In this document: piece by piece, positions 42,447-64,000 of the stretch
Numbering within the stretch: position 1 is the stretch's first letter
Layout: each line of letters starts with the position of its first letter
Translations under genes and position numbers: made by a program
The notes under the pieces: generated by a model
What the model saw: the letters and a program-made list of their open reading frames with translations, nothing else
What the model was told of the DNA's origin: nothing
The model's database searches: none
Virus record (IMG/VR): IMGVR_UViG_3300021185_002017
DNA: 64,000 nt
DNA from: a virus
Taxonomy: Duplodnaviria; Caudoviricetes
Direction: 5' to 3' (one strand)

Positions 42447-42806
42447 ATGAGTACACGATTATCTAAAGCACTAGAATTTGCAAATTACCGAGTCACCCTG
42501 AACAATCAGAACGCTGCCTTGAAGGCTAAAACTCAAAACTTATTGAGCTACAGTATTAACGGTGGTACATTTGTTATTGATTTACCATTACTTACATTTT
42601 GTAAGCAACTTATAGATCTCAAGCATAAAGATGCAGTTCTATTAGACAGTTTTGATAATCCTATCAAAGTAGAGCTAAAAGAATTTCATAAAGAGATTCT
42701 TAGTAGATGGTTCGAAGTTACAAATGACTACTACACTGAGTATGAAAAATTACGCAGAGCAAGAAAAGTTCATAAGATTTTGGATTTAAATGAAAAGGAA
42801 GAATAG
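42447..42806 (+). CDS. Hypothetical protein (119 aa)
   Basis: ORF preceded by CTTAAATA (late-promoter variant at 42434-42441) and overlapping the next gene. Confidence 0.65.
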   Translation: MSTRLSKALEFANYRVTLNNQNAALKAKTQNLLSYSINGGTFVIDLPLLTFCKQLIDLKHKDAVLLDSFDNPIKVELKEFHKEILSRWFEVTNDYYTEYEKLRRARKVHKILDLNEKEE

Positions 42807-43686
42807 CCGCGGCATCTTAATGTTTGCCCATAACAACGACGAAATAGATTATTTCAAGTTGGCAGTAGTAAACAGTTTCTTAATACAAAAACACTTAGGT
42901 ATTAAGGATATCACTGTGGTAACAGATTCGCATAGTTTAGCTCACGCAGAAAAAGAGCTAGGCAAAAAGACTATTAAGAAAGCAATAAACAATATAGTCA
43001 TTAGTGAAAAAGATAGAAACTTTAAAAGAGCAAACATACGGATATACAAAGATACCAGTCACACTGCAAAAAACTTATCATTTTATAATGTAAACAGATG
43101 TGATGCATACGATATCTCACCGTATGATGAAACTATATTACTTGATGCAGACTACCTTATATTAAGTGATACATTGAATCAGTGTTGGGAACACAACAAC
43201 GAACTGATGATGAATTGGAAGTGGCAAGATGTTATGCACGAAAGAGAATTCGAAAACTTAGATAGACTCAACGAATTAGGCATAACAATGTATTGGGCCA
43301 CTGTGGTGTACTTTAAAAAGACACCATATGTAGAAAGTTTTTTCAATTGTGTAAAACATGTAAAAGACAACAGTCAATTTTACAGAGACTTATACAAATG
43401 GAAAGGTAGGTTATATAGAAACGATTATAGTTTTAGTGTAGCCGCACACACGATGTCGGGCTTTATAGATAAAGGAATCCCTCAACTGCCTACAACACTG
43501 TACAAAACATTTGATACAGATGATGTACATAGTGCAATGAGCGAGGACACTCTTTTGTTGTATTTAGAAAAGCCTAGATCACCTGGTGATTTTATGATTA
43601 CCAAATGGAGCGGAGTTGATTTGCATGTAATGAACAAATGGGCAATCAACAGAATTAGCAAGGAGTTACTCGACTATGTCGCCTGA
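42790..43686 (+). CDS. Glycosyltransferase-like protein (GT-A fold, DxD)
   Basis: RGILMFAHNN, YDISPYDETILLDADYLI (DxD), YWATVVYFKK and YRNDYSFSVA motifs. Paralogous to 45141-46004. Confidence 0.7.
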   Translation: MKRKNSRGILMFAHNNDEIDYFKLAVVNSFLIQKHLGIKDITVVTDSHSLAHAEKELGKKTIKKAINNIVISEKDRNFKRANIRIYKDTSHTAKNLSFYNVNRCDAYDISPYDETILLDADYLILSDTLNQCWEHNNELMMNWKWQDVMHEREFENLDRLNELGITMYWATVVYFKKTPYVESFFNCVKHVKDNSQFYRDLYKWKGRLYRNDYSFSVAAHTMSGFIDKGIPQLPTTLYKTFDTDDVHSAMSEDTLLLYLEKPRSPGDFMITKWSGVDLHVMNKWAINRISKELLDYVA

Positions 43687-43736
43687 AGACAAGGACTTTC
43701 GAAAGAGACAACAAGATTTAACAGAATTAAACGGAG

Positions 43737-43979
43737 ATGGAAATCGTCAGCGTGGTAGATACGGTGAAGATGAGAGCCATCTCAAACCTGAAGAGGATGA
43801 AAAAGATAGCAAAGAAAACACCGAAGGTAGGTGATCTAATTGAACACACTTGTTCTTTGAACGGAAAGTTTGAAGGCAAAGTAGTGCAATTATTGTCTAT
43901 GCAGTTTGTATATGAAACTGCAAAAGGTGATAGGCGTTTCTGTCTCTTTAGGGAAACATGGAGGTTTATTGATGGCTAA
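43737..43979 (+). CDS. Small hypothetical protein (start probably at ATG 43797)
   Basis: KVGDLIEHTC...FEGKVVQLL beta-rich segment, with a GAGG SD before the MKKIAKK start. Confidence 0.45.
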   Translation: MEIVSVVDTVKMRAISNLKRMKKIAKKTPKVGDLIEHTCSLNGKFEGKVVQLLSMQFVYETAKGDRRFCLFRETWRFIDG

Positions 43980-44145
43980 AAAGAAACAAGAAGATATGGC
44001 TGACCACAGACCGGCTGTCAGCGATTTATGGAAAACTGATTCTATAAATTGGGACTTGATTCAACGCATGAGATTTATGAATGCAGATGCAGAAATAGAT
44101 CCAGAGGATAGTTATTCCAAGGGCAGAAAGTTTGATGAAGACTAG
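43972..44145 (+). CDS. Small hypothetical protein
   Basis: ATG 43972 with a GGAGG SD, overlapping the previous stop; in frame with track ORF 43906-44145. Confidence 0.5.
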   Translation: MAKKKQEDMADHRPAVSDLWKTDSINWDLIQRMRFMNADAEIDPEDSYSKGRKFDED

Positions 44146-44581
44146 GTATTACATACTCGCAGGTATAGTTTACACATTGTTTGTAGGCTTTATTGTGAAT
44201 ACTGTAACCTACAGAGTGACATACGAAGAAGTTAAGGAATCATGCTTAATAGATGGCTGTACAAATGTATATGAATACACAGGTGAAGTCGGTGGTGAGG
44301 AATGGGAAGAACTAATCATAATTGCTGAAGAGCTTCAAGAAGAAGCGGAAATGTGGGAGGCAAGTGCCGACGCAAAATGGGAAAGTGACGAGAATCCATA
44401 CTACAACACAGCATCTGAACAATCCGATGCCGCAGTATATGTTAATATGTTTATGATGTTAGCAGATCCTATAAACTGGTTGTTTACATTTTTAATAGCA
44501 AGTTTTATAGCAGGTTTCTACTTAGCATTTTATAGTTGTAAACTAGCAATAGAAAGATATTTTAAAGAGGGCAATGAGTAA
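44132..44581 (+). CDS. Predicted membrane protein (2 hydrophobic segments flanking an acidic loop)
   Basis: YYILAGIVYTLFVGFIV and WLFTFLIASFIAGFYLAFY, with a Glu-rich middle. Confidence 0.65.
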   Translation: MMKTRYYILAGIVYTLFVGFIVNTVTYRVTYEEVKESCLIDGCTNVYEYTGEVGGEEWEELIIIAEELQEEAEMWEASADAKWESDENPYYNTASEQSDAAVYVNMFMMLADPINWLFTFLIASFIAGFYLAFYSCKLAIERYFKEGNE

Positions 44582-44897
44582 AGATTTAGGAAGAAAGTTT
44601 TGTGCATTCTGGATATTTGTAATATTCTTTTGGATGTGGCCATACAGGCTAGTAACAAAAAGGAACAACTGTTATTTTTGGACACTGGAAAAACTTATAA
44701 CAGACGGCGGCAGTGTCAAATGGTATAAAAGTCATATCTGGTATGGGTACCACTGTACTTGGATTGACACCGAAGGAGTGGAGTGGGAATACACTTTGCC
44801 AAAAATGAAAAAGACTTCTTTATGGGGTGTGATGTGGTACCATGGCAAAATAAGGAAGTTTAGTAGAGGAAATAATTATTTTTTAAAGGGCAAGTAA
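44574..44897 (+). CDS. Trp-rich hypothetical protein with N-terminal hydrophobic segment
   Basis: FCAFWIFVIFFWMWPY; overlaps the upstream stop, which suggests translational coupling. Confidence 0.6.
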   Translation: MSKDLGRKFCAFWIFVIFFWMWPYRLVTKRNNCYFWTLEKLITDGGSVKWYKSHIWYGYHCTWIDTEGVEWEYTLPKMKKTSLWGVMWYHGKIRKFSRGNNYFLKGK

Positions 44898-44898
44898 A

Positions 44899-45144
44899 AT
44901 GAATTGGTGGGATAAATTTTTAGAGTGGGGTTGGCAGAGAGAAGCCGATAACCAGTTTCAAAAAGGACAAGAAGAAAAGAAAGTTATCGATATGATGGCA
45001 GATGATGTTGACCCAAACGAAGTCACAATCGAGAACGCATATAAAACAAGATGGATATGGTATCACACTATTCTAGCAATAGGTATCTTTATGACAAACA
45101 TAGTTTTAATAGCAATCTTTTTATTATTAGCGATTAAGTTATGA
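44899..45144 (+). CDS. Small membrane protein (C-terminal TM)
   Basis: WYHTILAIGIFMTNIVLIAIFLLLAIKL hydrophobic tail; overlaps the next ATG. Confidence 0.65.
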   Translation: MNWWDKFLEWGWQREADNQFQKGQEEKKVIDMMADDVDPNEVTIENAYKTRWIWYHTILAIGIFMTNIVLIAIFLLLAIKL

Positions 45145-46004
45145 GCAGAGGATACATAGTAATAGCACAAAACAATAAGACTGTTGATTACTTAGAACAG
45201 GCGTATGCCCTAGCACTCAATTTAAAGTTAACACAGAGCACTGTAAGCAATCTAACAGTGTGTGTAGACGCCGCAACGAAAGCATTAATTAAAACAAAAC
45301 ACAAACAAGTTTTTGATCATATTGTTGATATTCCATGGAATGACGATGCTGAAAATCAACCTTGGAAGATCAATAACAAGTGGAAGTTCTATTATATGTC
45401 ACCGTATGACGAAACAGTTATACTAGACACTGATATGATATTCCCCACTGATGTAAGTTACTGGTGGGATATGTTAAGCGAACGAGATGTGTGGGCTACT
45501 ACAAATGTTAGAACATACAGGGGAGATGTTGTTACTAGTGATTACTATAGAAAGTATTTTGTTGCTAATGAATTATCTAATGTGTACACAGCATTCTTTT
45601 ATTTTAAGAAAAGCGACTTGGCTAGTGAATTGTTTGCAATGATTGAAATCATATTTCAGCACTGGCAACGAATGTTTTATAAGTATATGCCCAAAGGCAA
45701 GCCAGCATGGTTAAGCGGAGATGTTGCGTATGCATTAGCAATGCAATTGTTAGACATTGAAGCAGAATGTACTAAGCCACTAGCAAATAACTTTCCTACT
45801 TTTGTACACATGAAAAGTCATGTACAGGATATAGCATCTACACTTATAGATGAGAATTGGACTAAGACATTACCTACTTATTATAACAAGTATGATGATT
45901 TTAAAATAGGAAACTTTCAGCAACTATTACCTTTTCATTATGTAGAAAAAAATTGGATGAAGCCAGATATGGTAAAACAAATGGAGAACGATCTTGGTAT
46001 CTGA
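45141..46004 (+). CDS. Glycosyltransferase-like protein (GT-A fold, DxD)
   Basis: RGYIVIAQNN, WKFYYMSPYDETVILDTDMIF (DxD), NVYTAFFYFKK and GDVAYALA motifs. Paralogue of 42790-43686. Confidence 0.75.
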   Translation: MSRGYIVIAQNNKTVDYLEQAYALALNLKLTQSTVSNLTVCVDAATKALIKTKHKQVFDHIVDIPWNDDAENQPWKINNKWKFYYMSPYDETVILDTDMIFPTDVSYWWDMLSERDVWATTNVRTYRGDVVTSDYYRKYFVANELSNVYTAFFYFKKSDLASELFAMIEIIFQHWQRMFYKYMPKGKPAWLSGDVAYALAMQLLDIEAECTKPLANNFPTFVHMKSHVQDIASTLIDENWTKTLPTYYNKYDDFKIGNFQQLLPFHYVEKNWMKPDMVKQMENDLGI

Positions 46005-46659
46005 AGCAGCACTTGCTAGAAAGAAAAGATTCATGGAAGCCAAAGAAGAGCATGGTGGAGATGTTGCTGGCTTAACAAAGCATATTGAATCATTAGATTG
46101 GAACTTGTGGCACGAAGAAGATGGCACAATTATATCTATGAGCAAAGAATGGAATGAAAAACTAGCAGACAAATATGAAACTGCTAAGTTTAACAACGAA
46201 CAAGTAAGTATATTACAAGACAAGAACTGGAACTTGTATCGTATACGCACAGACAAACACAATAAGCATGTAAAATTTATTGAAGTACGCCCTGTGGTAA
46301 TTGATAAAATTAGTACAGAAGATGACTTCTTATTTCAAGTAGATAACAATTCTAAGTCAGCATACGACATTAAAATAGTTTTAAGTTCTAAGGACATAAC
46401 AGTTACTCCACATTTAAATCTTTTAGAAAAGTATGCAGAAATTGCAATAGAGGATGCTGTTATCAACGGCAGAAAAGTATTCCCGTTGTATATAACATCG
46501 AAAAACGATCCTAGTTTTATGTTCCACACTATAAACATATCACTGTACGATATACTAAATAGTAAAAAAGTAATAAAAGAAACACCTACTGATTTTAGAG
46601 GATGTAGTATTTTTACACAGAAACTATTTGACAATTACAAGTATGAGGAGAAAAAATGA
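45994..46659 (+). CDS. Hypothetical protein, paralogue A
   Basis: Shares ALARKxRF...HGG and INGRK..F...TQxLFDxY motifs with the next gene. Confidence 0.7.
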   Translation: MVSEAALARKKRFMEAKEEHGGDVAGLTKHIESLDWNLWHEEDGTIISMSKEWNEKLADKYETAKFNNEQVSILQDKNWNLYRIRTDKHNKHVKFIEVRPVVIDKISTEDDFLFQVDNNSKSAYDIKIVLSSKDITVTPHLNLLEKYAEIAIEDAVINGRKVFPLYITSKNDPSFMFHTINISLYDILNSKKVIKETPTDFRGCSIFTQKLFDNYKYEEKK

Positions 46660-47315
46660 GCGACGAACTTAGTCCACAGGCACTAGCAAGAAAGCAAAGA
46701 TTTTTGGATGAAAAAGGAACACACGGTGGTTTTGATAACTTAGTGAAAGCTCAAGAAACTAGAGCAAGGCGTGTATACTTCGATGAGCGTGGCGACATAA
46801 TGAGTATATGTCATCAAGAACCACACGAAGTTAATCCATTATGGCTCACATACAATTTTGATCAGCATGTTATTAATGAACTAGATGATAAAGATGTTAA
46901 TAAGTTTTGGGTAGTAACACGAAAAGATCAAACATGCGAAATACAAATACGCCCACAAGCAACAGTGTATGCAACATTAACAGCAGATGATACTGTTAAA
47001 GTAGAGTTTGATCCTGAATTAGAAGTAGCAGATTGTATGGTTTCTATCAAAGAAGATCATGCAGAAATACAATTAAGCGATAAGTTTAAGGAAACAATGA
47101 AAGGAGTTTACCCTATACAAGCAACAATTAATGGTAAACGAATATTTAAATTCTTTATGTGTGATGCTGATCAGCAAGGTGTTATATTTGATACCATCAC
47201 AGTTTCGATGGTTGAGCTGTTAACAGAAAAAATAGTTACTAAAGAACTACTTGCAGACTTGCGCCATTGTACAGTTTACACACAACCTTTGTTCGATAAA
47301 TACTTGAGAGTATAA
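46656..47315 (+). CDS. Hypothetical protein, paralogue B
   Basis: ALARKQRF...HGG and INGKRIF...TQPLFDKY motifs; ATGA overlap with the previous gene. Confidence 0.7.
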   Translation: MSDELSPQALARKQRFLDEKGTHGGFDNLVKAQETRARRVYFDERGDIMSICHQEPHEVNPLWLTYNFDQHVINELDDKDVNKFWVVTRKDQTCEIQIRPQATVYATLTADDTVKVEFDPELEVADCMVSIKEDHAEIQLSDKFKETMKGVYPIQATINGKRIFKFFMCDADQQGVIFDTITVSMVELLTEKIVTKELLADLRHCTVYTQPLFDKYLRV

Positions 47316-47330
47316 ACAGGACAACACAAT

Positions 47331-48335
47331 ATGGCAAAGATAGATGTCACTGAGCTAGACATTTTCTATATTTCATACGATGAACCCAATTGCGAAGAAC
47401 ATTGGGCAGATCTATTGAACAAGGTACCGTGGGCAAAGCGTGTACATGGAGTTAAAGGTTTCGATGCGGCACATAAAACAGCCGCTAATCAATCAGAAAC
47501 AGATCGCTTTATCACAGTTGATGGAGATAACATTGTCATGGACGACTTCTTTGAGCAAGTGTTAGATGTACCTGATACAGATTTAGACGGCAACAACATA
47601 TCAGAAAGTATCTTTAGTTGGAATGCAAAGAACATTCTTAACGGATTAGTATACGGCAATGGTGGACTAAAGTGTTGGCCCACTGAATATACCAAAAGCA
47701 TTAACACACATGAAGCCGCAACAGACGGTGAAGGTATGGAGTTTTGCTGGAAGTTAAACTATATACAACTCAACGACACATTCTCAGAAGTACACCAAAC
47801 AGCATCACCCTTCCAAGCATTTAGAGCAGGATTCAGAGAAGGTGTTAAAATGAGTTTGGATCAAGGTGCAAGAGTATCACCAGACGAATTCCAACAACAA
47901 ATATGGTACGGTAACTATAACAGATTACAAACATGGTGCAACATTGGTACTGATGTTCCTAACGGCTTATGGGCTCTATATGGTGCTAGACTAGGTTGCC
48001 ATATGGCAGTACTAAGTGACTGGGACGTTAATTTAATATCTGATTTTGATTGGTTTAAAAGTTTCTTCTATGATGAAGTAGCACCTAAGTTTGATGGCCT
48101 AAACGATTTAAAGTGTAGTTATACTAGACTTGAATGGCAACAGGAATTGTTATACAAAGAAGTATGCAGGATAGGACACGAACTTAACGAAGCCATTAAT
48201 AGTATGATGTTGTTTAACCCTAACGAACAAATGTGTAGATTCTTTAAGAAAACTTATGTTAATCCTAGACGCTGGGGTGCAATGGTTAGAGAAAAACAAA
48301 TACAAGACCTACTTGAAAAAGGTCTTATACAATGA
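47331..48335 (+). CDS. Glycosyltransferase family 2-like protein
   Basis: DIFYISYDEPN, RVHGVKGFDAAHKTAA, RFITVDGDN (DxD), NGLVYGNGGLKCW and QAFRAGFREGVKM motifs. Confidence 0.7.
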   Translation: MAKIDVTELDIFYISYDEPNCEEHWADLLNKVPWAKRVHGVKGFDAAHKTAANQSETDRFITVDGDNIVMDDFFEQVLDVPDTDLDGNNISESIFSWNAKNILNGLVYGNGGLKCWPTEYTKSINTHEAATDGEGMEFCWKLNYIQLNDTFSEVHQTASPFQAFRAGFREGVKMSLDQGARVSPDEFQQQIWYGNYNRLQTWCNIGTDVPNGLWALYGARLGCHMAVLSDWDVNLISDFDWFKSFFYDEVAPKFDGLNDLKCSYTRLEWQQELLYKEVCRIGHELNEAINSMMLFNPNEQMCRFFKKTYVNPRRWGAMVREKQIQDLLEKGLIQ

Positions 48336-48493
48336 AGAAGTTATGGACTATATGGCAATATAGTTTAGGTGGCTACGATGATGAAACCACTGAACCATAC
48401 GACAATTATATTACTATTGTAAGAACATTAATTGTTGGCGTTAACTTTTTAACCTGCTTTTTTATTATGGCTAATGTGGTACACAATTGGTGA
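48332..48493 (+). CDS. Small membrane protein (53 aa)
   Basis: Below the track cutoff. ATGA overlap, reading MKKLWTIWQYSLGGYDDETTEPYDNYITIVRTLIVGVNFLTCFFIMANVVHNW*. Confidence 0.55.
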   Translation: MKKLWTIWQYSLGGYDDETTEPYDNYITIVRTLIVGVNFLTCFFIMANVVHNW

Positions 48494-48591
48494 CATATTT
48501 TCAGTTCTCAATAATATTACTTTTTATTATACCTGTAGCATGTTGGTATGCTGCTGTGTGGATGACTGACTATTTTGATGGTAAAAAGTGA

Positions 48592-48620
48592 TTGACACTT
48601 GCATTCAGTGAGTGTATAAT
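48592..48620 (+). promoter_or_regulatory. Perfect sigma70-type promoter
   Basis: TTGACA-N17-TATAAT, 25 nt upstream of ATG 48646. Confidence 0.85.
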
Positions 48621-48645
48621 ATAATTTTATATTGAAGGTAAACTA

Positions 48646-48897
48646 ATGAAAGATCCAGAAAAGTTCTTTGCGGAAGCTCAGAAAGGAATTGTAACTGTAG
48701 TATTTGAAAAACTACACACAAAAGAAATTCGTACGATGCCTTGTACACTTAATCCTGAACTAGGCGATTTCACTATTGAAATTAAAAAGTATGATCCTAA
48801 AAGCGACCACTATGTAGTATGGTGTACAGACAAAGACGCATGGCGTTCATTTAGAGTTAGTACAGTCAAGGAGTGGTATACAGGTGAGCCAAAGTAA
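48646..48897 (+). CDS. Small SH3-fold / WYL_2-like phage protein
   Basis: GIVTVVFEK...RTMPCTLNP...VWCTDKDAWRSFRV pattern typical of this small T4-like phage family. Confidence 0.6.
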   Translation: MKDPEKFFAEAQKGIVTVVFEKLHTKEIRTMPCTLNPELGDFTIEIKKYDPKSDHYVVWCTDKDAWRSFRVSTVKEWYTGEPK

Positions 48898-49705
48898 TTT
48901 AAAGTTAGGAATTGTTGGTGCAGGTTTTGTAGGAGGCAGTGTTATTGCTGGCTTTAACAAAAACACTGAACAGTTTGTTGTTGATACAAAACTTAACAAC
49001 AACACAATAGACGACTTAATCGAGTTTGCACCAAGCATTACATTTGTATGTGTTCCAACAGCACAACAAGAATCACATGACGATTGTGATGTAAGCATTG
49101 TTAGACAAGTACTAAGCGACTTATACGATAGGCAGTACAAAGGTATTGTAGTTATTAAAAGCACTATTACACCTAAGCACTTAACACAAATGAAGAAAGA
49201 CTTTGGGGTAAAGATTGTTTATAACCCAGAGTTCCTCACAGAAGCAAATGCTCATTCCGACTTTATTAATCCTAACATGCAAGTACTAGGTGGCAAGTGG
49301 AGAGACTGCGATGCAGTTGAAAAAGCATACAATAGACACAGTAGTGTTAAAGTTGTGCCTACATATAAAGTAGATTTAATTACAGCAAGTCTTATTAAGT
49401 ATACTATTAATAGTTGGTTAGCAACTAAAGTAACATTCTTTAATGAGATACATGAACTATTTGAGGCAAGTGGTGCTAAACCAGATTGGGAACAGTTTAC
49501 AGAAATGTTAGCAAGTGATCCACGCATAGGCAAAAGCCACATGCAAGTACCAGGCCCAGATGGACAAAAAGGTTTCGGAGGACATTGTTTCCCTAAGGAT
49601 ACTAACGCATTAAATTATTATGCAAAGTTATCAGGGGTAAAATTAGATGTCTTAAAGAAAGTTATATCAAAGAACAATGATATAAGAAGCGGAGATTCAG
49701 GTTAA
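48884..49705 (+). CDS. UDP-glucose/GDP-mannose dehydrogenase family protein (short form, no C-terminal domain)
   Basis: Rossmann IVGAGFVG, FVCVPT, VIKST, YNPEFL, KYTINSWLATK and catalytic GFGGHCFPKD motifs; 273 aa. Confidence 0.85.
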   Translation: MSQSNLKLGIVGAGFVGGSVIAGFNKNTEQFVVDTKLNNNTIDDLIEFAPSITFVCVPTAQQESHDDCDVSIVRQVLSDLYDRQYKGIVVIKSTITPKHLTQMKKDFGVKIVYNPEFLTEANAHSDFINPNMQVLGGKWRDCDAVEKAYNRHSSVKVVPTYKVDLITASLIKYTINSWLATKVTFFNEIHELFEASGAKPDWEQFTEMLASDPRIGKSHMQVPGPDGQKGFGGHCFPKDTNALNYYAKLSGVKLDVLKKVISKNNDIRSGDSG

Positions 49706-49734
49706 CCTGTCAATGCTAAGAGTAGTAATATAAC

Positions 49735-49761
49735 AAAAAGGGGCAATTAATGCCCCTTTTT
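49735..49761. terminator. Bidirectional rho-independent terminator
   Basis: AAAAAGGGGCA-attaa-TGCCCCTTTTT between convergent genes. Confidence 0.85.
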
Positions 49762-49774
49762 TGTATTAACTAAA

Positions 49775-49906
49775 TTAAGAAACCCTCGGTAATATATTTT
49801 CTATATTTCCAGATTTCATCATTGAGTCAAATTTTTTAAAGTAGTCAGATGCTATGTCACTTAATGGACGAGTTAATCTGGCTACTGCTCCTATTGGATT
49901 CGCCAT
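49775..49906 (-). CDS. Small peptide (43 aa)
   Basis: AAGGAG SD then MANPIGAVARLTRPLSDIASDYFKKFDSMMKSGNIENILPRVS*. Ends at the bidirectional terminator; CATAAATA lies upstream (50015-50022). Confidence 0.6.
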   Translation of the reverse strand: MANPIGAVARLTRPLSDIASDYFKKFDSMMKSGNIENILPRVS

Positions 49907-50243
49907 TTCAGTCTCCTTTTGTATGTAACCAGACCGTACACGTTGTAGTTCCTTTATCACTAATGTGAATTGCAACTATTAATCAACAGTTATGTTACAG
50001 TTGTGTTACAGAATTATTTATGATCATTAACAGGAATGTTAACTGAGTTGTGAATTCAGGGACAAAATTTTGTCCCTATAGGGGCAATAAAGGGTAAGAA
50101 ATCCCACACCTCTTCGACGCCAGCCGCTATATAATGCCTTACGACAGGTAGGTGTGGGAAATCTTACACCTTACTATGTAATAAGCAAATACCGTGCCCC
50201 TTTTACATTTTCTTCTTTTTTTATACATGAAAAAAACATCTCT

Positions 50244-50251
50244 GATAAATA
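50244..50251 (+). promoter_or_regulatory. Late promoter (GATAAATA)
   Basis: About 37 nt upstream of ATG 50288. Confidence 0.6.
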
Positions 50252-50287
50252 CAAGTAATACTATATAAAATATTTGCAAGGGCCAAC

Positions 50288-50998: not shown

Positions 50999-51051
50999 AT
51001 AAGACTTAATCTTAATTCGCCAATACTACCTGTATAGGTATAATTCTCCTT

Positions 51052-52419: not shown

Positions 52420-52423
52420 AAAC

Positions 52424-56406: not shown

Positions 56407-57735
56407 ATGTCAGATTATAACATTGCTGAAGAGCCTAATTTAATTAAGGCTGTAGAAGACAGTAAGCACTTTTGTGTCTTACCGTGGATTCACATGCATG
56501 CCTGGCCTGATGATAGAATCATGCCTTGCTGTATTGCTGATAGTGCAGAACCAGTAGCAGAATATAAAGCAGGTGACACTATTCTTGATGTAATGAACAG
56601 CGACGAATACAAAGAAATGCGTAAGAAAATGTTAGCAGATGAGCCAGACGCTCGTTGCCAACGATGCTATGACCTAGAGAAAGTAGGTACATGGAGTTTG
56701 CGTATTAGTCAAAACACACAACAGTTTACAAACAAAAAGCCTGAGAACACTAGAGAAAATATTACAATGCTACTTGATACTCAAGAAGATGGCGGCATTG
56801 AAGAATTTAAAATGAAGTACATGGATATACGATTTAGTAATCTTTGTAATTTTAAATGTCGTAGTTGTGGACCAGGTTGCTCTAACTTATGGGGCGAAGA
56901 AAAATTAAAACTAGTAGATGAAGGTGTATGGATTAACCGTAAAGGTAGAGATACATTACTAAGTGTTAACAGCGATGGTTCTTTCATGGAGGCACTAAAG
57001 CCACACTTAAATGATGTACAAGAAGTTTACTTTGCAGGTGGTGAGATTCTAGTTCACCCTGAACATTATGAATGTTTAGACTACTGGATTGAAAATGGTA
57101 TGGCTGATAAAGTTAGATTGAACTATACAACTAACATGAGTAAAATCAAATATCAGGATAAAGTCAAAGGCGAAAGAGATTTATTTGACTTGTGGAATCA
57201 TTTCCCAGACATTGAAATGTGGGCTAGTATTGATGCAGTTGGAGAAGCAGGTGATGTAATCCGTAAAGGATTCAAATGGAATCGTGTTAAAACAAATATG
57301 TTTGCTATTAGAGAAAGAGCACCACAAATTAGACTAGGGTTAACACCTACAATTAGTTTGTGGAACATATGGCATTACAGCGAAATGTTCGATTGGATGT
57401 TTGAGAACGGGTTTACATCAATAACTAACCCTCCAAGGCTAAATATGCTTACTGCACCGGATTGGGCAAACATCTCAATATTGCCTGAGAAGTTTAGACT
57501 TGATTTGATGCGTGAGTTTAGACTATACTACGAAAAGTTTCCTAAGCCAGAAGATAGTGAAATGAATGATACATTTAAAATGATCATGATGACATTGCGT
57601 AACGGTGAAGAAAACAGGGAAAAGTTAGAAGAGTTTTTTAGAGAAAATGATATAATGGACAAGATGCGTGGCGAAGAACTAGCAGAGATCTCGCCAAGAC
57701 TTTTAGAGGTAAGACAATGGATAGAACAAAATTAA
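56407..57735 (+). CDS. Radical SAM protein with N-terminal twitch-like domain (4)
   Basis: FCVLPWIH...PCC...CQRC; CNFKCRSC; FAGGEIL. Confidence 0.9.
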   Translation: MSDYNIAEEPNLIKAVEDSKHFCVLPWIHMHAWPDDRIMPCCIADSAEPVAEYKAGDTILDVMNSDEYKEMRKKMLADEPDARCQRCYDLEKVGTWSLRISQNTQQFTNKKPENTRENITMLLDTQEDGGIEEFKMKYMDIRFSNLCNFKCRSCGPGCSNLWGEEKLKLVDEGVWINRKGRDTLLSVNSDGSFMEALKPHLNDVQEVYFAGGEILVHPEHYECLDYWIENGMADKVRLNYTTNMSKIKYQDKVKGERDLFDLWNHFPDIEMWASIDAVGEAGDVIRKGFKWNRVKTNMFAIRERAPQIRLGLTPTISLWNIWHYSEMFDWMFENGFTSITNPPRLNMLTAPDWANISILPEKFRLDLMREFRLYYEKFPKPEDSEMNDTFKMIMMTLRNGEENREKLEEFFRENDIMDKMRGEELAEISPRLLEVRQWIEQN

Positions 57736-58814
57736 TTGCGGTTGAAGCACCTGAGAAATATCTCAGTATAACTTGGCAGGTAAACAACTTCTGTAACTAT
57801 AGTTGCAGTTATTGTAATCCTGGTAACTGGTTAGGTGATTTCCGTAACGAGGGTGAATTACAAATTTACTTGGATAACTTAGATACAATTATCGATAACT
57901 ATCAGAAAGATGGTTACAAGCATTATAAGTTTTTCTTCAGCGGCGGAGAGCCAACTGCATGGAAGCACTTTATTCCAATTGTTGAATATCTAAGAAACAA
58001 AATACCTGAAGCAACTATTGCAGTAAACACAAACCTAAGTAGACCTTTAGCATGGTGGCAGAAACATGTACACTTGTTTGACGATATCGTTGCAAGTTTC
58101 CATGTAGAGTTTGCAGACAAGGCTAGTTACAAAGAAAAGAATATGTTCTTATGTGATAAAGTAAACTATCTTAGTACTAAACTGTTATTGCATGATGATC
58201 GTTTTTGGGAAGTAGTAGAGTATGGTGAAGAACTTAAAAAAGCAATGCCTAACTACTTTATCGAATGGACACCACTGTATGACGAAATGACTGTTAACGC
58301 AGGACCTTGGGAATACGAAGATGCAGATAAAACAAAGTTTATCGAAGAACACAGTTGCGAAATGGAGTTTACAATTCCTAAGCCATACAAAGAAAGTAAA
58401 GCACAAAGTTTTAACAAGTACGGTGACGGTTCAAGTGAGCCATGTAATAGTAATGATATTATTGTACGCAGACAAAACTTCTTTGAGGGTTGGGAATGCC
58501 GTATAGGCGACAGTATCTTTATTAGTCCAACAGGACAAATTACATTAGCAAGTTGCGGTGTAAGTGGAGAAGTAGGACACATTATGAAGGACATTCGTTA
58601 TGTAGAGCCTAGAACTGTTATATGTAATAAGATGCATTGCCATTGTGGTACAGACATTATTATCCCTAAAAGACAATTGTCAGAACTAGATGAAAAGACA
58701 ATTGAAAACAGAGAAGCCGCAGAAGCACAAGAAGTAGAAAAAGTTGTTGAAGGCGAAGGATTCGATAAGACAGACGCTGAATGGGGTAATAAAACAGATG
58801 GCGTTGATCAATAA
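57717..58814 (+). CDS. Radical SAM protein with C-terminal Cys-rich (SPASM/twitch-like) domain (5)
   Basis: CNYSCSYC; FSGGEPT; C-terminal WECRIG...SCG...CNKMHCHCGTD. Confidence 0.9.
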   Translation: MDRTKLIAVEAPEKYLSITWQVNNFCNYSCSYCNPGNWLGDFRNEGELQIYLDNLDTIIDNYQKDGYKHYKFFFSGGEPTAWKHFIPIVEYLRNKIPEATIAVNTNLSRPLAWWQKHVHLFDDIVASFHVEFADKASYKEKNMFLCDKVNYLSTKLLLHDDRFWEVVEYGEELKKAMPNYFIEWTPLYDEMTVNAGPWEYEDADKTKFIEEHSCEMEFTIPKPYKESKAQSFNKYGDGSSEPCNSNDIIVRRQNFFEGWECRIGDSIFISPTGQITLASCGVSGEVGHIMKDIRYVEPRTVICNKMHCHCGTDIIIPKRQLSELDEKTIENREAAEAQEVEKVVEGEGFDKTDAEWGNKTDGVDQ

Positions 58815-60057
58815 ATCAGGCTACTGGTATTACGATACACAAGGAAGCGACAATGATGTATTTGTTAGAGAGCTCCGAGAAGTATCTATGGCTACTAGAA
58901 TTAAAGACTGGGATGCCGACCCTAATGATTATTACTTAATAGAATTCAAAACTGTACTAAGTCTACACCAAGCACCAATTGATCAGGATGTTGGTATTGC
59001 TAACATGGAACGCATTAGAGATCCTAATGACAACTGTTATTTAATATTAGAAAACTTCCACGAAGGCTTTAATCATATTATAGCACAAATATATCAATTT
59101 GTTATTGATAGACATCGCATACCACCTGAGAAAGTAATATTATATTCAGGTGCGTTAGACTTACAAGATCAAATAGAAACTTATTGTAAAGAGCATGGCC
59201 GAAAACCTTTTGGCTTTGAAAGTTATTTAGAGTTTGAATTTTCAGTACAGTCTGATTACGAAGGACTTATAGCAAACAAATATAATCCAGACGGAATGCG
59301 TCACATGGAAGAAGTGATGCAGAAACACTCTGGTGAAATGTTGCCTAACACATTGCAAAGTAAAAAGTATGATAAAAAGTTTTTAAACTTTAACAGACGC
59401 TGGCGTTTGCAAAGGCCTATGATGACTGCGTTATTAAAAGCCTCTGACTTATTAGACAAAGGCTATGTAAGTTTAGGATTATCAGACGATGGCAGATTGT
59501 GGGACACAGAGTTATCTCACATTATAGGCGAAGCACAATTATTTCACAAAGGAATACATCGTGTACTATTAGCAAATAAAGGTGCAATAGAAACAATGGG
59601 AGAACTAAAGTTAGATAAACAAGACCTTAGTATCAACCAAGCAAAATTAGAGACAACAGACCATCTAAATAAAATGTACGAAGATACTTATTTTAGTTTA
59701 GTGTCTGAGACTATATTCTTCCACAAGTATAGAGATTGGGAAGACAGTTGCTTCCTTAGCGAAAAGATATTCAAAGCAATATTATTTAAACATCCTTTTG
59801 TATTAATAGCAACACCTAACACATTAAAATACTTGAAAGGTTTAGGCTATAAAACTTATTCTCCAGTTATCGACGAAAGTTATGACAGCATAGAAGACAA
59901 TTATCTTAGAATGATTGCTATACTCAAAGAAGTTAATAGGCTATGTAAACTAGAAGGCGAAGCATTAGAAGATTTCTTAAAATACTGTAGGGTTATTGCT
60001 GAACATAATCACAATGTATTAGTAAACAAAAAACAATTTATATACAAACACTTATGA
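58798..60057 (+). CDS. Glycosyltransferase-like protein (GT-B, GT10/exostosin-like C-terminus)
   Basis: KKFLNFNRR, FSLVSET, FLSEKIFKAILFKHPF, LGYKTY and DESYD motifs resemble the donor-binding C-terminal motif of GT10-like enzymes. Start taken at ATG 58798 (track start 58744). Confidence 0.55.
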   Translation: MALINKSGYWYYDTQGSDNDVFVRELREVSMATRIKDWDADPNDYYLIEFKTVLSLHQAPIDQDVGIANMERIRDPNDNCYLILENFHEGFNHIIAQIYQFVIDRHRIPPEKVILYSGALDLQDQIETYCKEHGRKPFGFESYLEFEFSVQSDYEGLIANKYNPDGMRHMEEVMQKHSGEMLPNTLQSKKYDKKFLNFNRRWRLQRPMMTALLKASDLLDKGYVSLGLSDDGRLWDTELSHIIGEAQLFHKGIHRVLLANKGAIETMGELKLDKQDLSINQAKLETTDHLNKMYEDTYFSLVSETIFFHKYRDWEDSCFLSEKIFKAILFKHPFVLIATPNTLKYLKGLGYKTYSPVIDESYDSIEDNYLRMIAILKEVNRLCKLEGEALEDFLKYCRVIAEHNHNVLVNKKQFIYKHL

Positions 60058-60863
60058 TATACAACACAGACACAATACAAGATTTAGATCTAACACAATA
60101 CAAAAGGCACTTTACTTTTGGGTGTAGTTTTACAAATTACTATTGGCCTTCATGGGCTGATGTAATAGCAAATGCTATGCCTGATGCAGGATATGTAAAC
60201 ACTGCTAAACCTGGAGCAGGAAATAGTTATATACTTGCTAAACTAAGTCAAGCATTAAGATATTATAATATAGGCAAAGATGATTTAGTTACTATAATGT
60301 GGACATCTTTTTATAGACAAGACAGATATAGAAAAGGCGAAGGTTGGAAAAATCCTGGTAACATATACACACAAGATGACATTCCAATGGAAGTTGTAGT
60401 TAAACACTTAGATGACACAATGGGTTTTGCTGTAAGAGATTATGCTATTGTAGATACTGCAACAAACATGCTTAAAAATCATTCTTGTGATTCTATAATG
60501 ATGTGGGGAGTAGAACCTTCTCGTAATGATTACTATGGTTTAAGTCAAACACCAAATGAGGAAACTGACTGGTCAAACTTACAAGTATTTTACAAAGACT
60601 TAGATCAAATTATACTACCTGACTTATTAGGAACAGGTTGTGGCGGCCATTGGGCAGAAACTTTTTCATTCAAAGACGATCAAGGAAATAGTAGAGTAGA
60701 TTATCATCCTAAAACAGAAACATATTATAACTATTTAAAAAAGATAGGATTTAACTTGCCTGAAGATACAGGTAGTTGGGCACAGGAATGTGATAGATAC
60801 ACTGAAGCAGTAGAATTAGAATCGCAATTACAATACTTACACAAATGGTTTGACCTAGCATGA
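60054..60863 (+). CDS. SGNH-like hydrolase/acyltransferase-fold protein
   Basis: FTFGCSFT (block I Ser), NTAKPGAGN (block II/III) and DYHP (block V DxH). Confidence 0.55.
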   Translation: MIYNTDTIQDLDLTQYKRHFTFGCSFTNYYWPSWADVIANAMPDAGYVNTAKPGAGNSYILAKLSQALRYYNIGKDDLVTIMWTSFYRQDRYRKGEGWKNPGNIYTQDDIPMEVVVKHLDDTMGFAVRDYAIVDTATNMLKNHSCDSIMMWGVEPSRNDYYGLSQTPNEETDWSNLQVFYKDLDQIILPDLLGTGCGGHWAETFSFKDDQGNSRVDYHPKTETYYNYLKKIGFNLPEDTGSWAQECDRYTEAVELESQLQYLHKWFDLA

Positions 60864-62434
60864 ACATAGAATTATTAGCAAAAGAAATACAAAAGTTAGG
60901 AACAGACATAGAAATAATCACTCCTAACAAAGATGATGAGTTTGTAGTAAAACTTGTAGCAGAGTTATCGCCTCACACTGACACAGTGGTACATGACGGC
61001 GATGGAATGATAGACAAGTATTGTAAACATGATGTACAAGTATTATATAACTTAGACGGTCAGTACTTTCCATGTGAACATAACAAGACTATGGTTATAC
61101 TTGATACTGAGTCTGAAATACAATCAAATCATTTAACTTCAAGCGATAAGTGGTTTTGGAATGAAGGAAAGCAACAACTTCTAAATAGAAAAAATTCAGA
61201 TCATTATATCGATGATATGGAAAACAAAGAAGGCAATTCACGAGGCTCGTGGGCAAACATATTAAGAACAAGTTTTACACCACTAGCACCTTATGAGCAA
61301 ACAGGACAATTAGTTCCTGTGTATGCAGGTCCTATAACAGAACATGCTATTGATCAAATTACAATTTTAGATTCAGTTGAAAATGTTAAGCAAAAAATAT
61401 ATAACGGTGCTACGCATATTGCATTTGATGACAAAGATGAAGCATTGTATTGGACACGAGTTTACAGTTGTCACAGTGTTATTAAAAGATTAAAAGACAT
61501 AATGCCACCAGGTAGATTTTTATTCTTAACTGGAGCATTAAATGGTAAAGAAATATATTCTCAATGGTGTAAAGATCACGGACTAGAAGAAGAACTAATT
61601 ATGATACCGTGTGCAAGATTTGAAGCAGTATCAAAAGACATGATGTGGGATGGAGGCTTAATGCATCATCACGCAGAAATGGACTTACCTGTTTACACTG
61701 GCATTCGCCCAAAGAAATATTTATGTTACAACCGTATGCCTAGATTACACAGGTTAAAGATAGTAACAGAATTACACAAAGCAGGAATAATAAATGAAGG
61801 GCTTGTTAGTTTCTACAATGAGGATAACCATTTAGATAACCCAGGCTGGCAAGAAGGACACATAGAAGATCAAGCATGGAAAGAAACATTTGAATATTTT
61901 TATGAAAATATTTTTCCAGAACTAGACTATGTTTTAAACAAAACAGAAGAAAGATGGAACCCAGCAGATTTACAACGAGACGATATTGAACACTTTAATC
62001 AAACATATTTCAGTCTTGTAAATGAAACATTATTTTATAAAACAAGTTATCCACACAAAGGACTATGCGACATACAGCCAACAGAAAGTGTATTTTTAAG
62101 TGAGAAGATTTACAAGCCATTAGCATGTAAACACCCTTTTGTTGTTGTAGGCGTAGATAAAACACTAGAGTACTTAAAGCAGTTTGGTTATAAAACATTT
62201 GACAAATGGATAGATGAAAGTTATGATAATGAACCAGATGAAGATAAACGCATGTCTATGATTGTTGAAGAAGTTAAAAGATTAACAGCAATATCACATG
62301 AAGAATGGCAAGCAATGATAATTGAAATGATTCCTACACTACAACATAACTTTGATACATTGTGTAGAAATAAAAACTTAATCACAGCAAATATCAACTT
62401 ATCTCAAGTGTTCAGGAACGATGGTCCATACTAG
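60860..62434 (+). CDS. Glycosyltransferase-like protein (GT10/exostosin-like C-terminus), paralogue of 58798
   Basis: KKYLCYNRMPRLHR, FSLVNET, FLSEKIYKPLACKHPF, FGYKTF and DESYD motifs. Confidence 0.55.
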   Translation: MNIELLAKEIQKLGTDIEIITPNKDDEFVVKLVAELSPHTDTVVHDGDGMIDKYCKHDVQVLYNLDGQYFPCEHNKTMVILDTESEIQSNHLTSSDKWFWNEGKQQLLNRKNSDHYIDDMENKEGNSRGSWANILRTSFTPLAPYEQTGQLVPVYAGPITEHAIDQITILDSVENVKQKIYNGATHIAFDDKDEALYWTRVYSCHSVIKRLKDIMPPGRFLFLTGALNGKEIYSQWCKDHGLEEELIMIPCARFEAVSKDMMWDGGLMHHHAEMDLPVYTGIRPKKYLCYNRMPRLHRLKIVTELHKAGIINEGLVSFYNEDNHLDNPGWQEGHIEDQAWKETFEYFYENIFPELDYVLNKTEERWNPADLQRDDIEHFNQTYFSLVNETLFYKTSYPHKGLCDIQPTESVFLSEKIYKPLACKHPFVVVGVDKTLEYLKQFGYKTFDKWIDESYDNEPDEDKRMSMIVEEVKRLTAISHEEWQAMIIEMIPTLQHNFDTLCRNKNLITANINLSQVFRNDGPY

Positions 62435-62443
62435 ATTACAACT

Positions 62444-62451
62444 GGTAAATA
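62444..62451 (+). promoter_or_regulatory. Late promoter variant (GGTAAATA)
   Basis: About 24 nt upstream of ATG 62475; same variant as at 10612. Confidence 0.5.
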
Positions 62452-62474
62452 GTAGCATAATTAAAGGAATGTAA

Positions 62475-64000
62475 ATGTCTCAAGACGATAAGCCAATCGA
62501 TTTTAACCTAAACAATCTCGCAAAAGAGGCTGTTGAGTCAAACGAAAAACCTGAACTCAGTGTTGAAGATGCACGACATCAATCTATGATGGATGCTATT
62601 GCACCCTATGCAAAAAAGGTACAACAGAAGAATACTACATCTATTTACACAGATTATAAAACTAGAAAAACATCATTAATGTTAGTTATGTGTCCTGAGT
62701 GGGCACCAGAGTTTCCACCTTTTAACTTAGCAAGACTAAGTGGCGTATGTAAGAGTGCAGGATACGAAACAAGTATATTGGATTTGAATGTTAAGGCATA
62801 TAACTTGTTTAGAGATGATTGGCAACCTAATTTAAAAATACCATTTCCGTTATGGGACCCGAGTGCAAGTTGGCACTGGTTAGGCGAAACATATCTAACA
62901 GATATTCATCCGTTACTAGAGCCATTATTAATAGAAGGCATTGATAAAATTATCGAAATGAATCCTACAGCAGTAGGCTTTAGCCAATACTATATTTCAG
63001 AAGAGCCTACTAACTGGATGTCAGCAGAATTGCGTAGACGAGCTCCACACATTAAACAATTAGTAGGTGGTAGTAATGTACACAAAGATTGGTTTAACGG
63101 AAGAGGCTTATACGACTATATTGTAACAGGTGAAGGTGAAAATGCTATCTTGCAAGTATTGCAAGAACTCGAAGATGGCATAACACACGATGAACCACAA
63201 GTTTTAAAACAAACAAATGTCGAGCGTATTAATATTAATGGTATGCCGATGCCAGACTACACTGGTTTAGACTTTAACGAATACAAAGTACCTAACGGAG
63301 TAACTTCAGAGTTCTCTCGTGGTTGTACTGCTAAGTGTACTTTCTGTGAAGAAACACACTTTTGGAAATACAGACAGCGTCAAGCAGTTGATGTTATCAC
63401 TGAAGCAGAATACTTGTACTATGAAAAAGGTGCAGACATTATGTGGTTCATTGACAGTCTTGTTAATGGTAACCCTAATGAGCTAAGAGCATTTGCACTT
63501 GCATTGAGAGCAAAAGAAATTCCAATGCGTTGGACAGGCTATGCTCGTTGTGATGGTAGAATGGACGAAGAGTTTTTCAAAGACATATCAGGCAAAGGCG
63601 GCTGTATTATGTTTAACTACGGAATCGAATCTGGTAGTCAACGAGTACTAAACGATATGGCCAAAGGTGTTACTATCAAAGAGATGGAAGACAACTTTAA
63701 GTGGGGCAAGAAGTATGGTGTAATGGCTGCTACTAACTGGATTGTAGGCTTCCCAACAGAGAAGCATGATGACTTTGCACAAAGTATGCAGTTCCTATGG
63801 CGTAACAGAAACCAAAACATTAACAATGTTGGTGCTGGTGTAGGTATGGCAGTAGGGCCAGAAACTATTGTAGGACAGAATCCTCACAAATATAATGTGT
63901 CGTATCACAAATATATGAATCACTGGATAGCAAATGACTTTACTATTGCTGGAACACATGTTATGCATCGTGTTAAGTTCTTCCACATGTACTTAGACCT
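62475..64000 (+). CDS. B12-binding radical SAM protein (class B methylase-like), 3'-truncated
   Basis: Absent from the track because no stop lies in the window. AAGGA SD before MSQDDKPID; N-terminal PEWAPEFPPFNLARLSG...ILDLN and VGGSN...IVTGEGE (cobalamin-binding domain); SRGCTAKCTFC (CX3CX2C, near 63315-63350); GIESGSQRVLNDMAKG; NWIVGFPTE. Confidence 0.9.
   Translation, partial: MSQDDKPIDFNLNNLAKEAVESNEKPELSVEDARHQSMMDAIAPYAKKVQQKNTTSIYTDYKTRKTSLMLVMCPEWAPEFPPFNLARLSGVCKSAGYETSILDLNVKAYNLFRDDWQPNLKIPFPLWDPSASWHWLGETYLTDIHPLLEPLLIEGIDKIIEMNPTAVGFSQYYISEEPTNWMSAELRRRAPHIKQLVGGSNVHKDWFNGRGLYDYIVTGEGENAILQVLQELEDGITHDEPQVLKQTNVERININGMPMPDYTGLDFNEYKVPNGVTSEFSRGCTAKCTFCEETHFWKYRQRQAVDVITEAEYLYYEKGADIMWFIDSLVNGNPNELRAFALALRAKEIPMRWTGYARCDGRMDEEFFKDISGKGGCIMFNYGIESGSQRVLNDMAKGVTIKEMEDNFKWGKKYGVMAATNWIVGFPTEKHDDFAQSMQFLWRNRNQNINNVGAGVGMAVGPETIVGQNPHKYNVSYHKYMNHWIANDFTIAGTHVMHRVKFFHMYLD

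Follow-up and report, generated by a model that had tools for sequence, protein, structure and literature searches.

Directly after the tail-fibre genes, the 64,000-nucleotide stretch of viral DNA analysed here (the window; IMG/VR virus record IMGVR_UViG_3300021185_002017, Duplodnaviria, Caudoviricetes) carries a long series of enzyme genes that is very probably a glycan-building and tailoring island. The window reads the minus strand of a virus record of 80.4 kb in IMG/VR, which is 20% complete according to CheckV and thus points to a genome of ~400 kb; it differs from the genome record C1:5303-69302 at 54 positions, so that the two represent near-identical strains and not one sequence. The closest match of the gp46-like recombination nuclease is that of the Pseudomonas jumbo phage PA5oct (52% identity), which marks this uncultured marine phage as a jumbo myophage rather than a cyanophage-type (Kyanoviridae-type) T4 relative. 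On the 5' side, the island is preceded by genes for baseplate proteins (a gp5-like lysozyme and spike protein, one resembling gp6, and a 5616-aa protein) and by two fibre-like proteins, encoded at 39394-41394 and 41410-42381, with 24-26% Ser+Thr, which are candidate acceptors.

The island locus

The initial annotation of this DNA, made from the sequence alone, had placed a glycan biosynthetic region at 42790-64000. Its position against the fibre genes stands and both of its limits move: the island starts at ~42397, and it is not over at 64000, with at least 10 kb more past the window end and a total of >30 kb. All listed enzyme genes, from 42.4 kb to the window end, are co-oriented. Directly downstream of the window lie genes for a StrB1-type amidinotransferase, a cupin-like protein, a third GT-B paralogue and a DUF6071-like protein, and longer contigs of the same phage add, further 3', a DegT-like fragment and a carbamoyltransferase, together with a 1395-aa protein whose C-terminus is GT2-like. 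Not picked up initially were the amidinotransferase, aminotransferase and carbamoyltransferase just past the window, as well as an islet under a sigma-70 promoter (see below). An Rfam search of 42000-64000 found no family. The boundary and the enzyme genes are as follows (boxes are TAAATA promoter-like motifs; NDP, nucleoside diphosphate; SAM, S-adenosylmethionine; AF2, AlphaFold2; RsoM2USA is a cultured jumbo phage of Ralstonia from soil, for which open reading frames are given as ORFs).

42397-42428 (+): terminator-like hairpin after the last fibre gene, followed by a TAAATA box at 42436-42441; upstream boundary of the island
42790-43686 (+): putative GT8-like GT-A paralogue a, DxD = DAD; phrog_1903; 33% identical to RsoM2USA ORF353
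45141-46004 (+): putative GT8-like GT-A paralogue b, DxD = DTD; profile and fold matches
47331-48335 (+): candidate GT2-like GT-A-type protein, conserved DGD; box 47297
48884-49705 (+): short NDP-sugar dehydrogenase, 273 aa; PF03721 and PF00984, TIGR03026
51097-52419 (+): NDP-sugar dehydrogenase, 440 aa; PF03721 and PF00984, TIGR03026; box 51054, hairpin 52424-52445
52459-57735 (+): four N_Twi_rSAM paralogues of 468, 436, 416 and 442 aa; NF033640
57717-58814 (+): fifth radical SAM protein, 365 aa, without the N-terminal twitch domain; PF04055
58798-60057 (+): predicted GT-B fold glycosyltransferase, 419 aa from ATG 58798; AF2 and structure searches
60860-62434 (+): protein of 524 aa, paralogous in its C-terminal half to 58798-60057 (GT-B; 30-34% identity over ~235-330 residues)
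62475-64820 (+), running past the window end: cobalamin-binding (class B) radical SAM protein, 781 aa; box 62446

Enzyme families and folds

The two sugar dehydrogenases proposed initially are borne out by family models. Both match PF03721 and PF00984 (E-values 1e-14 to 1e-20) as well as TIGR03026 (E-value 1e-42; 149 and 143.5 bits, below the cut-off of 189.8), and both keep GxGxxG and a catalytic-Cys motif, which is of the GGxCxxKD type in 48884 and takes the variant form GGACHPRD in 51097. Neither matches PF03720, the C-terminal UDP-binding domain, and the 273-aa enzyme, a conserved short form, ends immediately past its catalytic motif. The two are divergent members of the UDP-Glc/GDP-Man dehydrogenase family. 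For the longer gene, the open reading frame spans 51061-52419 and the true start is most likely ATG 51097, matching independent gene calls. Between its stop and the first radical SAM gene lies a 9-bp GC-rich hairpin (52424-52445), kept at the related locus L001 and absent from L002 and L003, which might serve as an attenuator or as an element for RNA stability, tuning the dehydrogenase-to-radical-SAM ratio.

The count of five radical SAM genes likewise holds. Four match NF033640 over the full model (306, 365, 355 and 354 bits vs. a cut-off of 170; E-values 3e-91 to 4.5e-109), and their alignment shows invariant C138, C142 and C145 (Cx3Cx2C) together with N-terminal C21, C40, C83 and C86. The SPASM match falls at residues ~21-88, ahead of the radical SAM domain, an inverted domain order. 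The first paralogue represents a divergent “core” type, which RsoM2USA (ORF349) and the marine contig L093 have as well. The fifth protein has a PF04055 match (E-value 5.5e-9) with Cx3Cx2C at residue 26; its similarity to QueE is marginal, and its best match in the PDB, an anaerobic sulfatase-maturating enzyme (anSME), is weak. For the last gene of the window, the earlier description as a B12 radical SAM protein agrees with PF02310 (32.1 bits, exactly at the cut-off) and PF04055 (59 bits), with Cx3Cx2C at residue 284, and no NCBIfam equivalog model reaches its cut-off there.

Membership in NF033640 by itself gives no information on chemistry. Among solved structures in the PDB, the N_Twi profile matched 7wzv best (E-value 4.5e-4); literature searches for NF033640 and 7wzv returned nothing and no characterised N_Twi_rSAM member was found, and the literature searched held no described function for the GT8-like, GT2-like or N_Twi_rSAM families. 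Among species-representative genomes, N_Twi_rSAM genes occur mainly in Bdellovibrionota, Bacteroidota and Myxococcota, often in tandem (140 copies at 79 loci), with GT1 glycosyltransferases, DegT-type sugar aminotransferases, a two-part transketolase, B12 radical SAM proteins, carbamoyltransferases and ABC exporters as recurrent neighbours. These bacterial neighbourhoods favour carbohydrate over peptide substrates, without proving it. Tandem arrays of five to eight such genes were seen in metagenome-assembled genomes (MAGs) of Haliscomenobacter (L038) and Bdellovibrionota (L022, L027 and L028), and the L038 array ends in a carbamoyltransferase resembling the one downstream of the phage island. 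Elsewhere, one neighbour (L024:7199-8062 and relatives) pairs a weak PqqD-like region with a Peptidase_S74 (endosialidase or tail-fibre chaperone) domain, an unusual combination that may point to a substrate resembling a fibre protein. In Flavobacteriales, single N_Twi_rSAM genes have neighbours such as haem genes and a DEAD helicase; these seem to reflect synteny of the lineage and were set aside.

The radical SAM array might instead modify a fibre or baseplate protein directly, apart from the glycosyltransferases and in the manner of anSME or of enzymes acting on peptides made by ribosomes and modified after translation (RiPPs). Peptides are common substrates of SPASM/twitch enzymes, the best PDB match of the fifth protein, though weak, is anSME, and ABC exporters as well as one PqqD-like neighbour lie beside some of the bacterial homologues. 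Set against this, a conserved precursor-like peptide was sought in and next to the array and none was found (the search turned up only a 53-aa membrane ORF and a 66-aa antisense ORF), no RiPP recognition element domain was detected, and the bacterial arrays more often stand beside sugar enzymes (GT1, DegT, transketolase and carbamoyltransferase). Direct protein modification thus strikes us as quite improbable, and we prefer to see the array as editing sugars.

The glycosyltransferase-like genes returned no Pfam match even at E ≤ 5, no functional family from PHROGs and no NCBIfam match, and their assignment follows from profiles and folds. The two DxD-bearing GT-A paralogues named initially are 27% identical to each other with aligned DxD, and the two best PDB matches of their joint profile are to glycogenin-2, again with the DxD aligned (E-value 0.086). 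A model of a GT8-like protein, built by AF2 from a shallow alignment, reached a pLDDT (predicted local distance difference test) of 56 and is used as weak support only; with this low-confidence model, Foldseek gave glycogenin in its first 36 rows and then LARGE1, LH3, XXYLT1 and UGGT (TM 0.3-0.45), of which LARGE1 and XXYLT1 are GT8-type. PF01501 was unmatched, and the sole family match, phrog_1903, has a function-less label. Profile and fold together lend moderate support to 42790 and 45141 as GT8-like GT-A proteins, whereas Pfam adds nothing to the earlier call. For 45141-46004, 1412 homologues were found.

Assignment of 47331-48335 to a GT2-like family, also an earlier proposal, draws on a diverse profile of the protein, whose best PDB match is GmaR, a GT2 flagellin O-GlcNAc transferase, across the DxD (E-value 0.14), and on domain fusions: 12 of 35 multidomain relatives carry a GT-B (GT28/GT1-type) domain, 3 a GT2 domain and 7 Sel1 repeats. 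The family comprises 1198 clusters at 50% identity. PF00535 and the rest of Pfam were unmatched, and a profile of close homologues had no PDB match, so that the sequence evidence for a GT2-like protein is best described as weak to moderate.

A firmer picture emerges for 58798-60057, one of two genes previously called GT10-like. Its AF2 model (pLDDT 89.3; predicted TM-score, pTM, 0.88) shows two Rossmann-like domains with an inter-domain cleft, as in the GT-B fold. All 50 listed Foldseek PDB matches are GT-B glycosyltransferases or have that fold (probability 0.9-1.0), as are all 30 listed Swiss-Prot structure matches, and nearly all of the 50 PDB matches listed by VIA-align are GT-B (Z 7-10.5 over 240-300 residues). 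The top VIA-align rows are tied, namely T4 beta-glucosyltransferase (BGT, Z 10.5), an alpha1,3-fucosyltransferase (5zoi, Z 9.9), PimB' (Z 9.8) and FUT9 (Z 9.6), with protein O-glycosyltransferases also in the tied top group. The predicted GT-B fold therefore holds, as does a motif: the family alignment has an invariant E-K pair and an Arg cluster, which resemble the GT10 donor-binding motif. A distinct GT10 identity did not emerge, the GT10 model PF00852 giving no match and atlas similarity reaching only 0.80. The second gene of the pair, 60860-62434, enters through its paralogous C-terminal half, and a 465-aa gene past the window, with a C-terminal half in common with 58798-60057, is the third GT-B paralogue.

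These structural matches also bear on DNA hypermodification, in which a complex glycan would be built on a modified base against restriction. T4 beta-glucosyltransferase is the nominal top GT-B match (Z 10.5, tied), T4 alpha-glucosyltransferase and another phage glycosyltransferase are listed too, and some phage glycosyltransferases are known to hypermodify DNA, using diverse glycans (Pyle 2024, as cited in a passage of PMC12619734). However, DNA-modifying enzymes are needed during replication, and the genes of the island sit in the structural module behind late-type promoters. No thymidylate synthase or hydroxymethylase (PF00303) was found on the 80-kb record, itself only ~20% of the genome, QueC-, QueD- and DpdA-type genes did not turn up, and the fifth radical SAM protein resembles QueE only marginally. 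On balance, we give this alternative little probability, and retain a non-DNA glycan as the more plausible product of the GT-B enzymes.

Past the window end, the first gene encodes a StrB1-type inosamine-phosphate amidinotransferase (E-value 1.8e-67 to PDB 1bwd, residues 21-338) with a conserved Cys in its C-terminal motif. This Cys is presumably catalytic, as in StrB1. The gene for a 169-aa cupin-like protein has a weak AspH-family match (E-value 0.021). Such enzymes could alternatively make a free small molecule, an aminoglycoside-like guanidino/carbamoyl pseudo-oligosaccharide acting on the host or on competitors, as the strength of the StrB1-type match would suggest. Aminoglycoside pathways contain counterparts of all four kinds of enzyme: twitch radical SAM, B12 radical SAM, DegT-like and carbamoyltransferase. 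Homologous genes in Synechococcus phage S-SCSM2R were, moreover, read by their authors as “antibiotic synthesis genes” (PMC12801897). Yet no cyclitol-forming enzyme and no exporter were detected at the locus, at least six glycosyltransferases are many for such a product, and the linkage to fibre genes would go unexplained. We accordingly rate a small molecule as very unlikely, and a fibre-linked glycan as the better account of the amidinotransferase.

Promoters, synteny and the variable periphery

TAAATA occurs 34 times on the plus strand, and 12 of these occurrences lie ≤60 nt upstream of plus-strand starts, where 1.05 are expected (Poisson p ~1e-9). The boxes noted initially before 42447, 50288, 51097 and 62475 are thus confirmed (at 42436, 50246, 51054 and 62446), and 47331 has one as well (47297). 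The same box precedes structural genes, e.g., at 38718 before 38730 and at 17251 before 17262, and the boxes hold their position in orthologous loci despite diverged spacers. The earlier claim of late promoters fits most of the region, with one islet that is early-type:

48592-49975 (both strands): early-type islet, comprising a promoter, a WYL_2-like gene, the short dehydrogenase, a terminator and a 66-aa ORF
48646-48897 (+): WYL_2-like gene, 83 aa, before the short dehydrogenase
49735-49761 (no strand): strong bidirectional terminator ending the islet
49775-49975 (-): conserved convergent 66-aa ORF, meeting the terminator from the other side

The promoter at 48592-48620 (TTGACA-17-TATAAT) is the sole sigma-70 promoter of the region to score 12/12. 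It is kept in L001, and from its placement would drive 48646-49705. Because this islet (48592-49761) has a sigma-70 promoter and its own terminator, the region is mostly late-type and not uniformly late. Why a truncated sugar dehydrogenase, lacking the C-terminal domain, should be made early is puzzling. Contigs from four marine metatranscriptome runs cover 25-30 of the 30 bins of 42400-62399; they carry no timing, strand or level and may include DNA carry-over, and are not counted toward late expression.

The initial annotation had suggested checking whether the module is syntenic with fibre genes in related phages, and this synteny is conserved. Gene order is common to three IMG/VR loci at 55-95% identity. 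Two divergent marine jumbo-phage contigs, L093 (224 kb) and L094 (327 kb), show the order giant baseplate protein, fibres, 119-aa protein, GT8a, GT8b, 221-aa protein, GT2-like protein, dehydrogenase and core N_Twi_rSAM (L094 is filed at NCBI as a MAG, “bacterium”, but resembles a jumbo phage). The same order recurs at 33-50% identity in ORF361-ORF348 of RsoM2USA, in which the 221-aa gene and the dehydrogenase were undetected beside the core. RsoM2USA ORF361, ORF359 and ORF356 are virion proteins by mass spectrometry (PMC8504454). Among cultured phages, the glycosyltransferase core was found only in RsoM2USA; in marine metagenomes, homologues of the core genes are very abundant: clustering at 90% identity left at least 1412 groups in the GT8-like and >7500 in the GT2-like family.

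Content 3' of the core varies, with one radical SAM gene in the fetched stretch of L093 vs. five here, and the short dehydrogenase and/or 50288 are missing in some relatives. Between the GT2-like gene and the dehydrogenase, L094 carries a gene of the NeuB family (nonulosonic acid synthase; L094:12593-13375). Related phages apparently swap which sugar is made. This arrangement, a fixed core at the fibre genes and a periphery that changes, is that of a serotype-like locus for a surface glycan. The accessory and unassigned genes are:

42447-42806 (+): 119-aa protein, always between the fibre genes and the first GT8-like gene
43737-45144 (+): four small ORFs of 80, 149, 107 and 81 aa, the last three with one predicted membrane helix each
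45994-47315 (+): two paralogous proteins of 221 and 219 aa (45994 and 46656), with at least one copy in every related locus
50288-50998 (+): 236-aa accessory protein; box 50246; absent from L001, L093 and L094
60054-60863 (+): 269-aa protein, conserved in L001 and L002; GCS where SGNH has GDS

The 119-aa protein is 35% identical to RsoM2USA ORF354 and 56-64% identical to its counterparts in L093 and L094, and has no Pfam or PHROG match; the profile of 45994/46656 has no PDB or Pfam match, and PHROGs and NCBIfam are negative for these two as well. The small-ORF set at 43737-45144 is variable among relatives and absent from RsoM2USA, and drew no match from Pfam, PHROGs or NCBIfam. Two of the earlier functional calls gained no support. 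The putative 2-oxoglutarate (2OG)-Fe oxygenase at 50288-50998 shows an HxG...H pattern by eye, with no match in Pfam, PHROGs, NCBIfam or the PDB, and the SGNH-like call for 60054-60863 meets GCS in place of GDS and no family-model or PDB match. Pairwise comparisons of 50288 with the 169-aa cupin-like gene (no similarity) and of 60054 with the downstream DUF6071-like gene (no significant similarity) led no further.

None of the enzymes has a hydrophobic segment. Such segments are confined to the single-pass membrane ORFs, three between the GT8 paralogues (44132-45144; 149, 107 and 81 aa) and one after the GT2-like gene (48332-48493; 53 aa). Pfam and NCBIfam gave no flippase, polymerase, ligase, initiating phosphoglycosyl transferase or exporter match at the locus, where several genes are unassigned and detection may have failed. 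As the enzymes are all soluble and no membrane-step family was detected, the product would be made, and probably transferred, in the cytoplasm.

The same observation weighs on host-surface remodelling, in which O-antigen or capsule would be altered to block superinfection or to keep progeny off lysed cells. For published islands that lie next to fibre genes and hold cassettes of GT8, UDP-glucose dehydrogenase and radical SAM genes, O-chain modification is the proposed role (PMC7029224). Uronic acids, NeuB-type sugars (as in L094) and carbamoylation are typical of surface polysaccharides, and soluble glycosyltransferases can work on host-made lipid-linked intermediates. Enzymes without membrane segments and the lack of Pfam or NCBIfam matches for flippase, polymerase, ligase or initiating transferase fit this poorly, as do late-type boxes, which leave a short time for rebuilding the envelope before lysis, and a fibre linkage that persists across distant hosts (marine, Ralstonia) without explanation. 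We hold surface remodelling to be unlikely, and turn to glycosylation of the virion itself.

Proposed product and comparison with known systems

Fibre synteny out to RsoM2USA, all-soluble enzymes, late-type boxes and serotype-like accessory variation lead us to favour a virion acceptor. Substrates, reaction order, timing and acceptor are inferred as follows. The two dehydrogenases would oxidise host nucleotide sugars to uronic acids; the five radical SAM enzymes would then edit sugars at unactivated carbons, with C-methylation by the cobalamin radical SAM protein; the genes just past the window would aminate, amidinate (StrB1-type) and carbamoylate; and at least six glycosyltransferases (two GT8-like, one or two GT2-like and three GT-B) would assemble the glycan with no lipid carrier. 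The acceptors would be the phage's own virion proteins, i.e., the Ser/Thr-rich fibres just upstream and perhaps the giant baseplate protein, and the outcome a particle with a variable sugar coat. This full scheme, a tailored glycan made in the cytoplasm, mostly late, and placed on virion fibre or baseplate proteins, is put forward tentatively, as plausible. The glycan-building and tailoring region tied to fibres that had been proposed initially fits the tool results, short of the 2OG and SGNH calls.

Precedents exist in mycobacteriophage virion glycosylation, as cited in a passage of PMC12619734, and in XacN1, a related jumbo phage with at least two glycoproteins in its virions (PMC5852040). 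Enzymes related to adhesin glycosylation appear among the structural matches of 58798-60057. In serine-rich-repeat adhesin glycosylation, soluble GT-B, GT8 and GT2 enzymes act in sequence on a Ser/Thr-rich protein, and this system may serve as a useful mechanistic analogy.

Several points weigh against glycosylation of the virion. Fibres are Ser/Thr-rich in many phages without glycosylation, and twitch/SPASM radical SAM enzymes often modify peptides, not sugars. The GT8 and GT2 assignments are sub-threshold (E-values 0.086 and 0.14; pLDDT 56 for the GT8 model), DNA glucosyltransferases top the tied GT-B structural list, and the unit with the short dehydrogenase is under an early-type sigma-70 promoter. 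XacN1 has no detectable GT8-like or GT2-like homologues, which makes its glycoproteins only a loose precedent, and comparable islands were published as host O-chain modification (PMC7029224). For this phage, moreover, the glycoprotein, the glycan and late expression are all deduced from DNA sequence.

Were the product on fibres, host range and particle stability of ocean phages would hinge on a virus-made glycan missed by annotation, and the radical SAM array would indicate new sugar chemistry. It is tempting to speculate further that N_Twi_rSAM is an uncharacterised carbohydrate-editing class (epimerase, dehydratase or C-C-forming) and that, with the B12 radical SAM protein, amidinotransferase and carbamoyltransferase, it yields a guanidinylated, carbamoylated and C-methylated uronic-acid glycan on the tail fibres of abundant marine jumbo phages, a viral “serotype” determinant for adsorption or shielding, although we regard this extended version as rather doubtful.

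Among described systems, the host recognition cluster (HRC) of pelagimyophages and cyanomyophages (Zaragoza-Solas et al., 2020, PMC7029224) is, like this island, a large variable stretch in the structural module beside fibres; it holds GT8-type glycosyltransferases, UDP-glucose dehydrogenase and radical SAM cassettes that vary among relatives, to which the putative GT8-like, the dehydrogenase and the radical SAM genes correspond here. The HRC occurs in Kyanoviridae-type T4-like phages, whereas the present lineage differs (PA5oct-like gp46); the comparison covers setting and gene content, not the VrlC/gp14 flanks that define the HRC. The role proposed for the HRC in print is host O-chain modification, and for the HRC and this island alike the function is read from genes. 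In the passages of Timms et al. (2010, PMC2853527) on the T4-like Campylobacter phages CP220 and CPt10, five radical SAM genes and an amidinotransferase form an “interchangeable module”; unlike here, these passages name no glycosyltransferase and no fibre linkage. The amidinotransferases of the two systems are homologous at 24-27% identity. Deazaguanine DNA modification is a known trait of the CP220 group, and genes dedicated to it are not seen in this island.

Closer in sequence is the cultured Synechococcus phage S-SCSM2R (ORF301-310, PMC12801897), whose amidinotransferase is 60% identical to that of the island and lies among glycosyltransferases, a DegT/AHBA-synthase-like aminotransferase, radical SAM and small 2OG/cupin-type genes, so that a cultured phage has part of this toolkit; the stretch annotated around that gene lists a single radical SAM gene and none for a B12 enzyme, vs. 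five plus a B12 gene here. RsoM2USA ORF348-361 (PMC8504454), all annotated as “hypothetical”, keep the core order with a second GT2-like gene, and a dehydrogenase, GT-B, B12 radical SAM protein and amidinotransferase are all missing beside that core. For glycosylated virions, the comparison reaches further afield. Virus-encoded soluble glycosyltransferases glycosylate structural proteins in the cytoplasm, without a lipid-linked pathway, in chlorovirus PBCV-1 (Vp54) and in Mimivirus (fibrils), and Freeman reportedly described capsid and tail-tube glycans in mycobacteriophages in 2023. The giant-virus systems (PBCV-1 and Mimivirus) include sugar-tailoring enzymes, as here; the mycobacteriophage, chlorovirus and Mimivirus systems are not known to use radical SAM, B12 radical SAM or amidinotransferase enzymes, and differ from this island in that glycosylation is a prediction for the latter.

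Overall, this kind of island is known descriptively, from the HRC, the CP220/CPt10 module, the S-SCSM2R genes and radical-SAM-rich T4-like marine genomes (Nishimura 2017), and such islands in marine phages have putative products and acceptors throughout the class. The present analysis adds a core of GT8-like, GT2-like and N_Twi_rSAM genes tied to the cultured phage RsoM2USA, fold evidence for unannotated glycosyltransferases, a mixed early/late promoter layout, and a pathway in which no membrane step is seen. The link to RsoM2USA and S-SCSM2R makes the question of function bench-testable.

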